Source: Candidatus Shapirobacteria bacterium (lineage in GTDB: Bacteria; Patescibacteriota; Microgenomatia; UBA12405). From it: a stretch of DNA of 64,000 bases. This document shows, in pieces, positions 34,397-46,771 of this stretch. Position 1 is the stretch's first letter, and each line of letters opens with the position of its first letter. Made by a program: the position numbers and the translations under genes. The stretch is from the NCBI GenBank assembly GCA_041674845.1, contig JBAYUY010000001.1, positions 235,432 to 299,431 on the forward strand, given 5' to 3'. The notes under the pieces were generated by a model. That model did no database searches. It was given only the letters and a program-made list of their open reading frames with translations, and was not told the origin of the DNA.

Positions 34397-34711
34397 ATGT
34401 ATTGATACTTTCCGTGTATTGATATCATTGTGTTTGGGTCGGCCCAATTGTAAATTATTTCTGCTTCGGAAGTTTTCATATTGATACAGCCATGTGACAT
34501 TGGAGTTCCAAAATTATTATGCCAATAAGTTCCATGGATACTGTATCCAGTCTTTTTTTCTACTTTGTCGTTGTAAAAAAATAAAATGTAGGGGACATTG
34601 GGCAAATAGTAATAAGTGCCCAACTCTTTGGAACCACCTGACATTTTTTGAGACTTAACTTTTGCCCAAATCTTGTACTCACCGATAGGAGTTCGATCCC
34701 ATTTGCCGGAG
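34393..34711 (-). pseudogene. L,D-transpeptidase (YkuD) gene, C-terminal half, separated from its N-terminal half by the 11.8-kb island
   Basis: The minus strand from 34707 reads GKWDRTPIGEYKIW...[20 protein letters not shown] (YkuD catalytic His/Cys motif). Upstream of 34711 the reading frame is element-derived. Confidence 0.8.
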
Positions 34712-36271
34712 CCATATTGGATTTGCAGGTCGCAAATCACTATTTTTAGCCATAATATCCGTATACTTTTGAGGTTCTTGCCAGTCTTTATATCTATCGC
34801 TCCAATTTTCTTGATTGGATAATATCTCATATACTGGTTTCAGCTTAATATCCAACATTTTGTTAGTTTTTAGTATGAGGTTCGTGCCAATAGTCAATAA
34901 AATAGTTTGTTTTTCTTCTCTCAAGCCATTTTCAAATTTATATTGACAGTTGCGAGCGAAATCTATTGTATTTTCAACTTTTGTCCTCCAGTCATTTAAT
35001 TCATCACCAGCATTGTCTATTTTTACTTTAATTTCACTTTTTTCCTTCTCAAGATTTTGTTTTTTCTCTCTATAAGTTTGATCATCAATAGTTTCATCCA
35101 ACTTCATATCTAAAAGTTTATCTAGTCTTTTTTCTAGGTTGGATAATTCGGCTTGTTTTAATTTTAATGTATCCTCGTTAAAAGCGGATTCATTTTTATG
35201 CACTACTGATAACCATCTATTCATCCAGTCAATAAATTTTTGATTTGGTCCCAATTTTTTTAATAAAGTATCAATTTGATTCAAAATATCATCTTCGGTC
35301 ACTGGTTTTGATTGACACTTAATGTTTTTATTTTTTTTACTGCAATGATAATAAGTGTAGACAGCAATTCTCCCAGTTTTTTTATAATGTTTTATTTTTT
35401 GTGTAGCAGTCATAGCACAGCCACATTCCTGACAACGGAATAATCCAGTTAAATCAAAAACATGTGTTCTGGCTATTGGTCTTCCGTATTTTCCCAAAGC
35501 TTTTTGTACAACATCAAATTCTTCTTTAGTAATCATTGGTTTATGTTTGCCAATATATATATTGCCAGACTTCTTAGGCCATTCATATTCACCATAATAG
35601 AAAGTTTTACCTAACATATAGTAAAAATTTGCTTTTGAAATTTTTAAACCCCAGTTTTCTGTTACATCTTTCCATACTTCTGAAGCTTGTCTGCCTTTAA
35701 TTATTTCACCAAAAATTCTTTTAACTAAATCAAATTTTTCTTCGTCCACTTCAATTGTATTAGTTCCTTTTTTACCAAAAGTATTTTTATAACCAAGTGG
35801 AGCAGTACCTGGAAACCATCCCATACTAGCTTTTGTTGTCATTCCTCTTTTTGCATTTACACCTTTATCATCAGACTCTTTTTTAGACATCATAAAAACC
35901 ATACTCATCCAACTTTTATCATCAGGTGTATTTTTATAGATTTTCCCTGGTTTATAAATTTCTTCAATCTGTTTTAAATCCATCATGTAAATTACTTTGC
36001 CACCATCCATGGAATTTCTAGCGATACGAGATTCGTCCCAAACAACTATTCCTTGAGCTTCACCATTTTCAATTCTGGTTAACATTTCATTAAACATTCT
36101 TCTACCAATAACATGAGCACTGCCAGATTCTTTATATGTGGCAACAACTTTTAAATTATTATCACTAACTACTTTCATTAACTCTTTCTCTTGTGAATCA
36201 AGAGATAAAATTTGTCTATCTTCCTGTTCAGAAGATTTTCTACAATAAACAAAAACTTTTTTTAATTCCAT
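34679..36271 (-). CDS. large serine recombinase (integrase), paralogue of 16633..18189
   Basis: 530 aa with YCRKSSEQEDRQILSLDSQ, ARNSMDGGKVIYMMD, CQECGCAMTA...YTYYHCSKK and a coiled-coil. The last ~10 codons are encoded by host DNA beyond the junction. Confidence 0.9.
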   Translation of the reverse strand: MELKKVFVYCRKSSEQEDRQILSLDSQEKELMKVVSDNNLKVVATYKESGSAHVIGRRMFNEMLTRIENGEAQGIVVWDESRIARNSMDGGKVIYMMDLKQIEEIYKPGKIYKNTPDDKSWMSMVFMMSKKESDDKGVNAKRGMTTKASMGWFPGTAPLGYKNTFGKKGTNTIEVDEEKFDLVKRIFGEIIKGRQASEVWKDVTENWGLKISKANFYYMLGKTFYYGEYEWPKKSGNIYIGKHKPMITKEEFDVVQKALGKYGRPIARTHVFDLTGLFRCQECGCAMTATQKIKHYKKTGRIAVYTYYHCSKKNKNIKCQSKPVTEDDILNQIDTLLKKLGPNQKFIDWMNRWLSVVHKNESAFNEDTLKLKQAELSNLEKRLDKLLDMKLDETIDDQTYREKKQNLEKEKSEIKVKIDNAGDELNDWRTKVENTIDFARNCQYKFENGLREEKQTILLTIGTNLILKTNKMLDIKLKPVYEILSNQENWSDRYKDWQEPQKYTDIMAKNSDLRPANPIWLRQMGSNSYR

Positions 36272-36283
36272 AATTTTCCTTCT

Positions 36284-36374
36284 AAAAAAATAAATGCCCC
36301 CACTAGTGCAACCAGAACCGTTAAGCTCTGTCTAATGAGGGCATTCATAAGCTTAAACGGATTTTCTGGTTGCA
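36284..36374 (-). promoter_or_regulatory. nested inverted repeats plus U-run directly upstream of the recombinase RBS (terminator/attenuator-like)
   Basis: TGCAACCAGAA (36307-36317) pairs with TTCTGGTTGCA (36364-36374). CCGTTAAGCT pairs with AGCTTAAACGG. AATGCCC (36293-36299) pairs with GGGCATT (36339-36345). On the minus strand these are followed by TTTTTTT (36284-36290), then AAGGAA and the ATG. Confidence 0.4.
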
Positions 36375-36457
36375 TAATAATTATACTATTTTTGAGTCAT
36401 AATTTCACTAATTTCTCCTAATAAACCAATAAAAATTAAATAGTTATTAAAGTAAAA

Positions 36458-36554
36458 GTAACTTTATATTTTTAACCTTATAGGAAAAGAATTTATTATT
36501 AAGTTAATAAAATAAAAGTTACTTTATAGTTACAGTTACTTTATATATAGTTAC
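36458..36554. repeat. cluster of iteron-like direct repeats (A)GTTACTTTATA
   Basis: GTAACTTTATA is at 36458-36468 and GTTACTTTATA at 36518-36528 and 36535-36545. AGTTAC also occurs at 36528-36533 and 36549-36554. Confidence 0.7.
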
Positions 36555-36925
36555 TAGAAGGGCATATAGATTTTTCCATTAACCGCCTCTTCTTCAATTG
36601 GTGTTCCCTCTAAAAGTTTTTCTTTATAAGCCTGATAAATTTCTTTTTCCATCTTTTCCCAATCAGATGGATTTTCAATAAAAACCTTGGCATGATACTT
36701 TCCATGGATATTAACTGAGAGTGGTTGAATATTTATTTTTTCATTAAGCCGAATATTCAAATTATTACTACTCCAAATAATAAAATCCCTTATATTGATC
36801 CAGCCAAAATCTTTAGTCATAATTGATAAATTAGCATTTGCTAATAAATTTCCTCTATCTTTTATTTTTATGTCTATCTTTATATTTTCGTTCATTTTTT
36901 TTAATAAATAATTAACAATCAGCAT
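36554..36925 (-). CDS. hypothetical protein (possibly SpoVG-like fold)
   Basis: 123-aa ORF that overlaps the upstream gene by 14 nt. Weak resemblance to SpoVG-type small DNA/RNA-binding proteins, judged by eye only. Confidence 0.5.
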   Translation of the reverse strand: MLIVNYLLKKMNENIKIDIKIKDRGNLLANANLSIMTKDFGWINIRDFIIWSSNNLNIRLNEKINIQPLSVNIHGKYHAKVFIENPSDWEKMEKEIYQAYKEKLLEGTPIEEEAVNGKIYMPF

Positions 36926-45385: not shown

Positions 45386-45641
45386 AATAAAATCATTTTT
45401 CATAAAAATTACAAGTTTAAAAGAAAAAATCAAAAAAAATATGACAGATAATAAAGATTATATATTATGGATAGTTTCGTATTTAGTTTGTTTATCACCA
45501 CTCTTATTGTTCGCATTTATTTGGAAATATAGTGAAGGAAACGAATTACCATGGGTAATGATGTTTTCGTTTTATGTAATTTCTACTTTAATTTTTATCT
45601 TTGCGTTATTAAAACCAAATTTTAAATCAAAAGAGGAATAA
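45363..45641 (+). CDS. small membrane protein (2 TM)
   Basis: 92-aa ORF that overlaps the KAP gene end by 23 nt. An alternative start is M at 45441. Confidence 0.45.
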   Translation: MKERLKNKIKSFFIKITSLKEKIKKNMTDNKDYILWIVSYLVCLSPLLLFAFIWKYSEGNELPWVMMFSFYVISTLIFIFALLKPNFKSKEE

Positions 45642-45691
45642 TATACCAATATTGATTAGTAGAAAAAATGTTTAATAATTAAATATAAATA

Positions 45692-45934
45692 ATGGATTGT
45701 AATAAAAACATATTTGAAATTTGGAAAGAAAATGGTGAAAAATTACCGTTTAAGGTAATTCGTAATTCATGGGACGAAAACAAAGGTCATTTTGCACTTG
45801 TAAAAAAAATTGAAATAGGGAAATGGCCATATGGTAAGGCTTACGGTCAGTATTTTTACCATGGTAAACCTGGAATAATTGGCATTATTGGTTGTGCTGG
45901 TACATATGCTTGGAAATTAAAAGAAGAAAAATAA
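45692..45934 (+). CDS. hypothetical protein
   Basis: 80-aa ORF, Trp/Gly/Lys-rich, with no motif. Confidence 0.45.
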   Translation: MDCNKNIFEIWKENGEKLPFKVIRNSWDENKGHFALVKKIEIGKWPYGKAYGQYFYHGKPGIIGIIGCAGTYAWKLKEEK

Positions 45935-45941
45935 ATAACCT

Positions 45942-46463
45942 ATGCACTCAGTCAGAGAAATCATTATCAGGATGCAACCTTTTCCAATTGAACTTAAAAA
46001 GATTTGTAAAGAAAATCCTTCTTTTGAAGATGCACTTAAAAGTGTGCATCCAGAAAGGTTCGTTTCCTTGGGTGCTATAGTTACTTCTCAATGTCCTTTA
46101 GTACCAGAAGATGAAATAATCGGATTTTTTGTTTATGATTATAGAAATTTAAATAAACCAATTTTCAAACAAGATTTTATTGTAAATATTGGCAAGAAAA
46201 ATAAAGAATTTATTTTATATACAAAATATCCAAGATCATACAGTAAAACTATTAAAGATATTAGTGAATTTTTTAAAAAATATCCAACATATAATAAAAA
46301 AGATCATCACCCAAAGTATAGAAAATTACCAGACCTAATTAAGCCTAGGGCAAAAGAAGCTATTAGGTTAGCAAATAATATTTTAAAATTTGGTTTAAGA
46401 ACGGAACTTACTGATGATGAATTCAATCAATTTGATTTAGATTTAAAAAAGTTTGGTTTATAG
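45942..46463 (+). CDS. hypothetical protein
   Basis: 173-aa ORF, the last gene before the island's right junction. Confidence 0.5.
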   Translation: MHSVREIIIRMQPFPIELKKICKENPSFEDALKSVHPERFVSLGAIVTSQCPLVPEDEIIGFFVYDYRNLNKPIFKQDFIVNIGKKNKEFILYTKYPRSYSKTIKDISEFFKKYPTYNKKDHHPKYRKLPDLIKPRAKEAIRLANNILKFGLRTELTDDEFNQFDLDLKKFGL

Positions 46464-46480
46464 TCCGCACACAGCCATTC

Positions 46481-46771
46481 TTATTTGTTCCAAAGCAGGG
46501 AGGAAATTCTAAAATCACCTACAGAGGTATTGTCTTCGAATGCAGTTAAAGTTTGAGTAGTTAAATTAATTTCGATTCGTTTGTTGGAAAAATTTGTGGT
46601 ATCGCCTAAAATATTAGTATCGGTAAATTTTTGTGGAGGAATAGGTATTTCTTGATTGTTATAAATAGCCGTGTTTTGACTTGGATCGTAATTATTTTGT
46701 ATTTTTGTGGTTGGAAGTGGATTTTGGAATGATAAAAAACTGGCAAGAAAAGCGAGTAAGAGATTGTACAT
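46481..46771 (-). pseudogene. L,D-transpeptidase gene, N-terminal half (signal anchor plus start of YkuD domain) ending in 5 element-encoded codons
   Basis: The sequence reads ...KRIEINLTTQTLTAFEDNTSVGDFRISS and then LLWNK* from island DNA. Its continuation is at 34707 downward. Confidence 0.8.

Follow-up and report, generated by a model that had tools for sequence, protein, structure and literature searches.

A serine-recombinase island splits a ykuD gene in a Candidatus Shapirobacteria bacterium at a site resembling the tRNA-Asn 3' end used by related elements

We analyzed a stretch of 64,000 nucleotides (nt) from a Candidatus Shapirobacteria bacterium (GenBank assembly GCA_041674845.1, contig JBAYUY010000001.1, positions 235,432 to 299,431), hereafter the window, in which an island with a gene for a large serine recombinase (LSR) at one end lies within a ykuD (L,D-transpeptidase) gene. 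A first-pass annotation of this DNA had described a recombinase island that splits the gene at a short GGAG core. The features that bear on this arrangement, with window coordinates and lengths in base pairs (bp) or amino acids (aa), are given below.

34393-34707, minus strand: ykuD 3' half, the GKWDRTP...HGT...SHGC catalytic part, stop codon included
34679-36271, minus strand: LSR of 530 aa, with Resolvase, Recombinase and Zn_ribbon_recom domains
34684-34710, minus strand: tRNA-Asn-like half-site in ykuD, TC CGGCAAA TGG GA TCGAAC TCCTATC
34708-34711: recombinase-proximal GGAG core, with the predicted crossover dinucleotide at 34709-34710
34712-46502: integrated element, 11,791 bp, 27.7% G+C, no CCGG sites
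46499-46502: far-junction GGAG (CTCC) core, with the predicted crossover dinucleotide GA/TC at 46500-46501
46503-46771, minus strand: ykuD 5' half, aa 1-90 plus a portion of the Ser91 codon, covering the signal anchor and the beginning of the YkuD domain
46790-46862, minus strand: tRNA-Val(cac), directly upstream of ykuD, host sequence that is kept in empty-site relatives and is not the target

On the minus strand, a 96-aa open reading frame (ORF) at 46481-46771 ends in ...GDFRISS followed by five unrelated codons (LLWNK) and a stop, and below 34707 the same strand resumes the ykuD frame with GKWDRTPIGEYKIW... and continues to the catalytic motif, both as first described. In-silico removal of 34712-46502 does restore one frame, as had been claimed, and yields a single ORF of 195 aa. 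The Pfam YkuD profile (PF03734) matches the product in one stretch (E=5e-23), aa 64-188 corresponding to positions 2-146 of 146 of the profile, with the junction (aa 91/92) inside the domain. The reconstructed protein is complete, its catalytic residues H149, G150 and S162-H163-G164-C165 (SHGC) being invariant in the alignment. A search of 5.8 billion proteins returned 5,869 relatives, the best of them intact 194-195-aa proteins of Patescibacteria with 75-78% identity and 98-100% coverage, and the alignment with intact orthologues is colinear and gapless at the junction. Both halves are undecayed: of 82 alignment columns without variation among eight orthologues, 79 are retained. In an empty-site relative (GCA_023245435.1, locus L001) and two further contigs (L002 and L003), the halves are not naturally separate genes i.e., ykuD is uninterrupted and has the same neighbourhood, in the order L21, L27, ParB, S26 signal peptidase, tRNA-Val, YkuD and LCAT-like hydrolase. 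The outer flanks in the window are syntenic with L001 on both sides of the island.

As judged from the sequence of the two fragments, the YkuD enzyme is probably inactivated, with the 5' fragment lacking the catalytic His and Cys and the 3' fragment lacking the signal anchor. A 145-aa ORF (34393-34830, minus strand) starts at an ATG within the recombinase gene, in another frame, and continues into the 3' part of ykuD; its product, were it translated, would be the catalytic half without a signal anchor. The first-pass annotation took the undecayed halves to mean that the island had integrated recently. The good state of the halves holds up and makes a recent, if undated, insertion plausible; an excision that restores the gene would also leave them intact.

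The presence of GGAG at both junctions (34708-34711 and 46499-46502) is as first reported, and carries little weight by itself, the chance of a 4-bp repeat alone being 1 in 256. The boundaries are, however, fixed independently of this repeat, because three separate homologies break at the junctions. In blastn comparisons with the recombinase genes of five relatives (72-90% identity), homology ends at 34708/34709; in a comparison with the empty-site ykuD of L001, it begins at 34711; and at the far end, the match to L133, a sister element on a Logan contig, sets in precisely with the CTCC/GGAG core (46499-46502). The far end of L133 reads GGAACCTGAGTGTTCCGTTTTG, CTCC, CTGCTTTGGAACAAATAAGAATGG, and that of the window ...GATTTTAGAATTTC, CTCC, CTGCTTTGGAACAAATAAGAATGG. 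The G+C content of the island (27.7%) is lower than that of its flanks (34.2%). Together with the syntenic intact gene, these boundaries support the first-pass description of a site-specifically integrated LSR island that splits ykuD at a short core. The predicted empty site reads AGAATTTCCTCCGGCAAATGGG and the predicted circular junction CCAATATGGCTCCCTGCTTTGGAAC.

The recombinase is full-length. Its catalytic domain (PF00239, E=1e-16) spans aa 6-151 and is followed by PF07508 (aa 178-259) and PF13408 (aa 274-333); Y9, R11 and S13 of the YCRKSS motif are invariant in 14 homologues, and the zinc-ribbon cysteines are conserved at positions 280, 283, 310 and 319. The named NCBIfam equivalogs CcrB and XisF match far below their cut-offs, the best match being CcrB (E=7e-24, 84 bits vs a 900-bit equivalog cut-off). 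As the first-pass annotation had noted, the gene lies at the left end of the island and reads outward across the junction. The stop codon falls 27 nt beyond the junction, and the last nine codons (RQMGSNSYR) and the stop are ykuD sequence read out of frame. The integrated protein ends in ...WLRQMGSNSYR, and the predicted free form has 534 aa and ends in ...WLPALEQIRMAVCGL. The reconstructed attP, a string not found in IMG/VR, has the dyad TCCAA-N6-TC-N6-TTGGA, centred on the TC of the CTCC core. This TC is predicted to be the crossover dinucleotide because it lies at the centre of the attP dyad and is the sole core position common to all junctions i.e., CTCC, CTCG (L005) and CTCT (L089).

This LSR belongs to a large recombinase clade, mostly from Patescibacteria and with at least 505 loci in GTDB, whose normal target is the 3' end of tRNA genes. 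Its closest homologues, P0121 (92% identical), P0122 (83%), P0123 (73%) and P0124 (70%), read outward into the reverse complement of tRNA-Asn(GTT). The recombinase stop codon falls within tRNA-Asn in L005, the element end lies inside tRNA-Asn in L007/L009, and the same tRNA-Asn 3' half, with a group-I-intron-like insert, is found in L004 and L006. A scan of GTDB representative genomes brought further tRNA-Asn cases at 64, 59, 50, 45, 41 and 41% identity, with all of the closest relatives (92-41%) at tRNA-Asn(GTT), and the loci there comprise L007/L009, L010, L011, L014, L016, L019 and L020; more distant members lie at tRNA-Lys, Gln, Ser, His, Trp, Ile, Leu, Arg and Phe. Among the 66 GTDB loci with enough flanking sequence, 37 have a convergent tRNA at the 3' end of the recombinase gene, where about 0.004 would be expected. 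The recombinase ORF extends past the junction, and the protein sequence thus reveals the target: 58 of 120 homologues end in ...WLPR(V/E/L/Q)DSN(H/L/Q)xP, which is the translated, reverse-complemented T-arm.

The tRNA-Asn genes at these loci have the 3' end ...GGA-G(CCA), and the GGAG core corresponds to the last three bases of the acceptor stem and the next base, which we take to be position 73 of the tRNA. At occupied tRNA-Asn ends the CCA is supplied by the element, and the tRNA stays intact in these relatives because crossing-over takes place within the final acceptor-stem bases. We found no description of this recombinase clade in the literature searched, and tRNA-targeting serine integrases may have been tabulated since 2015. 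Integration at tRNA ends has been regarded as a domain of tyrosine integrases (PMC4383910), and a 2026 survey still gives RNA targets as a preference of tyrosine integrases (PMC13626063). The tRNA 3' target of the family, the identity of GGAG with the end bases of tRNA-Asn and the resemblance of the ykuD site to the tRNA-Asn 3' end are all points that go beyond the first-pass annotation.

Read outward from the TC of CTCC, the half-sites compare as follows.

attP, left half-site: GCCATATTGGATTT
attP, right half-site: CCTGCTTTGGAACAAAT
tRNA-Asn (L004) half-site: CCCCGCGTGGACTCGAAC
ykuD (window) half-site: CGGCAAATGGGATCGAAC
ykuD (L089) half-site: TGGAAAATGGGATCGCAC

All five carry TGG at +8..+10, and both ykuD half-sites carry the T-loop sequence TCG(A/C)AC at +13..+18. 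The window's ykuD half-site and the tRNA-Asn T-arm targets share TGG at +8..+10 and TCGAAC at +13..+18 from the crossover, such that the ykuD motif S-G-K-W-D-R-T, coded TCC GGC AAA TGG GAT CGA AC, matches the tRNA-Asn end in register. When a weight matrix built from ten tRNA-Asn half-sites was scored over the island-free window, the ykuD site ranked 16th of 104,358 positions, behind true tRNAs, and 2nd of 210 CTCC sites. The shared TGG/TCGAAC motif occurs once in the 64-kb window, against 0.03 occurrences expected.

A strict pattern for the recombinase-ykuD junction had no match in a metagenome scan or in IMG/VR. A looser, degenerate pattern gave ten metagenome matches, none of which was a junction; two were a genuine tRNA-Asn(GTT) 3' end, retrieved in register as GGCTCC GGTAAATGGAATCGAAC. 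One metagenome contig (Ga0255343_1000241, L126) has 28 tRNA genes in 10 kb (700-10350), and the 3' end of its tRNA-Asn agrees with the ykuD junction sequence of the window at 20 of 22 positions.

A second ykuD case came from another recombinase, P0199 (L089/L090), which is 42% identical to the LSR of the window and whose nearest relative (66%) lies at tRNA-Asn. The tail of P0199, MGSHPHGYFQNLG, is out-of-frame ykuD. The L089 junction, on contig CAZPXL010000004.1, reads ...ATGCTC followed by TGGAAAATGGGATCGCACC..., in frame SGKWDRTPTGTFKIWAK...SHGC, and ykuD is interrupted at the same codon as in the window i.e., S/GKWDRTP. Another contig of separate origin, L090, has this type of junction as well. 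By sequence, then, a different element in a different host appears to have split ykuD at the same codon, and this recurrence is the decisive observation for reading the site as a tRNA look-alike.

Based on these comparisons, we favour, with a probability of roughly 0.68, integration into a pseudo-attB inside ykuD that looks like the end of tRNA-Asn. The island would be an integrative element of a Patescibacteria-wide family, whose sole recognisable mobility gene is the LSR at one end. The LSR would have recombined the attP (TCCAA-N6-TC-N6-TTGGA) with a sequence inside ykuD, which can be considered a pseudo-attB because it copies the putative recombinase-contacted positions of the tRNA-Asn half-site i.e., the crossover TC, TGG at +8..+10 and TCGAAC at +13..+18. 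Insertion would part the secretion anchor from the half with the catalytic His and Cys and so abolish the enzyme, and the gene would be re-formed without change if the island excised at the same 2 bp. The element itself would consist of a conserved regulatory backbone and swappable defence cargo, here a CCGG-type restriction-modification (R-M) pair and a KAP NTPase.

Much of the evidence could also be expected if ykuD were a genuine, selected site and the element a reversible gene-integrity switch, like skin in sigK or SPbeta in spsM: the halves are intact and well conserved, the recombinase is full-length, precise excision would restore the frame, and two diverged recombinases used the same codon. 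We nevertheless regard such a switch as unlikely. A recent accident would equally leave the halves intact, among the ~200 family members that were inspected, ykuD was the site in only two, and in both cases the nearest relatives lie at tRNA-Asn; neither a directionality factor nor a developmental context was identified, and no second ykuD copy was found in the 64-kb window. It appears improbable that the LSR acquired a new specificity, for ykuD, and gave up tRNA-Asn. The 42 residues by which it differs from its 92%-identical, tRNA-Asn-targeting relative do include eight in the recombinase domain and six in the zinc-ribbon, as a change of specificity might entail, but they are evenly distributed, with the DNA-binding domains no richer in them than the coiled coil. 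Because these substitutions are not clustered in the DNA-binding domains, a pseudo-attB is favoured over both a dedicated or regulated switch and a new specificity. There is no sign of retargeting in attP, which is the same in the window as in L133; the latter has the same attP arm and an equally similar LSR, and its far junction abuts other sequence, not ykuD. The ykuD site, moreover, still resembles a tRNA-Asn end.

Two further explanations concern the nature of the island itself. The XRE regulator, the layout with an integrase at the end and the primase-helicase genes of some sister elements (D5_N in L005, Prim-Pol in L008) would suit a defective prophage or a phage satellite. We consider this very improbable, given that the unknown ORFs have no PHROGs match, domain searches of the island found no capsid, terminase or tail domains, and the relatives of the recombinase in IMG/VR are 37% identical at best. 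A recognisable prophage was rejected, there being neither PHROGs matches nor close IMG/VR relatives. An assembly chimera of an island with ykuD fragments is scarcely credible. Metagenome contigs do often break at such elements, and L004, L007 and L012 stop at or near the junction; against this, the same 4-bp core stands at the two junctions and joining them gives exactly one frame, synteny with L001 extends along both outer flanks, and the L089 counterpart of the junction was seen again in L090, a contig of separate origin.

Several points weigh against a tRNA look-alike in ykuD. Without the core, the weight-matrix rank of the ykuD site falls to 275th of 104,358; the minimal shared motif was defined post hoc, after the site had been seen; positions +2..+7 of the ykuD site, i.e., those of the acceptor stem, mismatch the tRNA-Asn of the relatives; and the other ykuD half-site has no TGG at +8..+10. 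The native tRNA-distal attB half-site was not recovered, and the host tRNA-Asn gene is not in the window. In the scanned collections there was no empty site, no circular junction and no further ykuD junction, and the 5.8-billion-protein collection, used as a proxy for the empty site, held no intact allele of more than 78% identity to the reconstructed YkuD. Lastly, that one codon was hit twice might also reflect selection of ykuD as a target.

Some members of the family have C-terminal tails that are derived neither from tRNA nor from ykuD, yet are conserved between diverged recombinases. Tails of the ...ALEQIR... type or other non-tRNA tails were seen in P0138, P0125, P0144, P0145, P0174, P0193, P0227, P0165 and P0203, and in L013, L018 and L133 (11816-11926); that of P0138 contains ...WLPALEQIRTSIF..., and the tail LVNxFKNREIEFGFSLQNIQTVF is shared by P0165, P0203, L013, L018 and L133. 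Either the far attP arm or an adjacent element in tandem seems to code for such tails, and the C-terminus of the recombinase may therefore depend on the integration state. A bolder proposal, which we hold to be quite doubtful, is that the clade forms an undescribed class of serine integrases that specialise in tRNA T-arms and acceptor ends, with an ORF that spans attP and a C-terminal tail that is swapped upon integration. The free tail would be conserved and element-encoded (...PALEQIR... or ...LVNxFKNREIEFGFSLQNIQTVF...), and the integrated tail would derive from the tRNA (...PRxDSNxxP) or, in the window, from ykuD. Such a swap might act as a sensor of the integration state or in directionality control, and the conserved ykuD motif might repeatedly and reversibly receive such elements, which would switch peptidoglycan 3-3 cross-linking on and off in Patescibacteria.

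A second LSR of the family, 33% identical to that of the island, is encoded elsewhere in the window (16633-18189, plus strand, 518 aa) and reads into the reverse complement of tRNA-Glu(ttc) at 18127-18200. Near it are two pairs of perfect inverted repeats, 12566-12692/16383-16509 (127 nt) and 16504-16592/18042-18130 (89 nt), which suggest a 5.6-kb element at 12566-18200 with GNAT, DHFR-like, Mur-ligase-like and Vut_1 genes and the core GTGTGA(G). An additional, complete attP-like site, inverted, lies just upstream of this LSR gene. In sister elements, the tRNA-Asn of L006 (11625-11986, minus strand) and of L004 (11570-11689) has its anticodon loop broken by an insert of ~330 nt, which matches the Rfam group I intron model over its full length with 29.7 bits (E=1e-5), below the gathering score; ARAGORN made no call for either interrupted tRNA-Asn. 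L008 (1-21725) contains two or three recombinase elements of the same family in tandem, each with its own type I R-M cargo, and the first recombinase reads into the next element, not into a tRNA. In L004 a nested block (2878-7729), comprising a second recombinase with DUF4368, MarR, MatE and DUF1848, lies between the backbone operon and the XRE/DUF6804 genes, and elements of this family therefore also serve as landing sites for other recombinase elements.

The remaining genes of the island, and the cargo of its sister elements, are as follows.

36554-37526, minus strand: four small backbone ORFs, of 82 aa (DUF5659), 51 aa, 75 aa and 123 aa, kept beside the recombinase in sister elements
37587-38372, minus strand: 261-aa backbone protein, orphan family
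38428-39958: backbone block of a 154-aa membrane protein (minus), XRE (39005-39223, plus), DUF6804 (39273-39569, plus) and a 130-aa membrane protein (39566-39958, plus), with 97% DNA identity to L133
40312-42274, minus strand: type II R-M cargo by domain matches, HpaII-family endonuclease (40312-41400) and C5 cytosine methyltransferase (41390-42274)
42311-46463, plus strand: cargo block by domain matches, with a 70-aa ORF, a 940-aa KAP-family P-loop NTPase (42563-45385) and ORFs of 92, 80 and 173 aa without a family match
L133: cargo of SEC-C and KTSC proteins
L004: cargo of an OLD-family nuclease and the nested second recombinase element
L007, L008 and L089: cargo of type I R-M
L006: cargo of HNH/helicase

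The cargo listed in the first-pass annotation was correct at the level of domains, but its view of the island as rich in defence and exclusion functions did not hold. The identity of L133 to the window is 97% in a 3.2-kb backbone stretch and 92% in the recombinase gene, and its cargo differs. The five-gene operon and the genes for the 154-aa protein, XRE, DUF6804 and the 130-aa protein form the backbone of the element and not defence cargo, because this block recurs in sister elements with other cargo; in L005 (D5_N) and L008 (Prim-Pol) the primase-helicase genes lie inside the operon. The clear defence-type cargo is the HpaII-type R-M pair and the KAP NTPase only. PADLOC, one of the checks proposed for the island ORFs, matched the former (REase_II and MTase_II) and gave only partial matches for the latter, while the unknown ORFs received no family from PADLOC, PHROGs or NCBIfam.

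The R-M genes overlap by 11 nt and match PF09561 (RE_HpaII, full length, E=2e-119) and PF00145 (E=1e-83). The island has no CCGG site where 4.3 would be expected, and the flanks have 57 (43 expected); the zero fits an HpaII-type system, and the pair probably recognises CCGG. The recombinase-proximal junction creates one CCGG (GCTCCGGC). The KAP NTPase carries a KAP_NTPase domain (PF07693, E=8e-23) and matches QatA only in part (aa 306-415, 77 bits vs a 600-bit cut-off), as it does PifA (aa 46-145); none of its neighbour genes matched QatB, QatC or QatD. The 261-aa backbone protein belongs to an orphan family with 69 representative clusters among 1.84 billion. An AlphaFold model from 50 sequences was confident (pLDDT, the predicted local distance difference test, 87.5) and had no significant fold match in PDB or BFVD, nor had the sequence a match in PDB. 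Weak Sigma70_r4_2 matches, to a C-terminal helix-turn-helix, were present in 6 of 50 family members, and our best guess from sequence is a transcription factor. A LOOT RNA (Rfam RF03000, 80.8 bits) lies in or beside the sister element of L005 (1021-1133, minus strand), adjoining the backbone operon.

A serine-recombinase island that splits a gene is a known type of event; the tRNA targeting and the recurrent ykuD mimicry are less ordinary. The gene-splitting elements skin (SpoIVCA) in sigK and SPbeta (SprA) in spsM of B. subtilis, A118/phi10403S in comK of Listeria and the Anabaena fdxN element (XisF) have the same end-located three-domain LSR, a very short core and an insertion in coding sequence whose frame precise excision can restore. 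Theirs, however, are dedicated protein-gene targets, several with regulated excision, whereas here the relatives of the LSR target tRNA and ykuD is an apparent look-alike. With tRNA and tmRNA islands of the Islander class, the relatives share insertion at the 3' end, an intact tRNA, an adjacent integrase, tandem arrays (L008) and defence cargo. That class uses a tyrosine integrase and a long duplicated tRNA fragment, in contrast to the serine recombinase here and an identity between attP and target of only ~4-8 bp; no Phage_integrase domain was found in the island. Its attB lies in a tRNA or tmRNA gene, with element sequence restoring the tRNA, as in the relatives (tRNA-Asn in L005, L010, L011, L014, L016 and L019) but unlike the window element, which lies in ykuD.

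For pseudo-attB sites, phiBT1 in Nocardia integrates at a site that only partly matches its native attB (PMC5937489), and partial match to the native attB is what the cases of phiC31 and phiBT1 have in common with ykuD. Those cases involve engineered vectors in heterologous hosts, whereas here a natural element in its own phylum appears to have entered a conserved coding motif that was hit twice independently. SCCmec is likewise an LSR-mobilised, non-phage island with variable cargo at the end of a conserved housekeeping gene, but it uses the CcrA/CcrB pair, not a single recombinase, and another target. QatABCD and PifA systems differ in that the KAP NTPase of the island has neither a full-length match to them nor QatB-D partners.

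Mobile elements of ultra-small bacteria are poorly known. The elements described here would be small integrative elements that shuttle defence cargo i.e., type I and II R-M, an OLD-family nuclease and a KAP NTPase, among such bacteria. Their short att sites and compact recombinase are possible tools, if active, and the ykuD mimicry is relevant to predicting the off-target sites of serine integrases employed in genome engineering. Taken together, the data point to a serine-integrase clade in Patescibacteria and other uncultured phyla that systematically uses tRNA 3' ends, and to a natural, twice-seen case in which a conserved protein motif would mimic a tRNA end in DNA and may thereby become a secondary integration hotspot.

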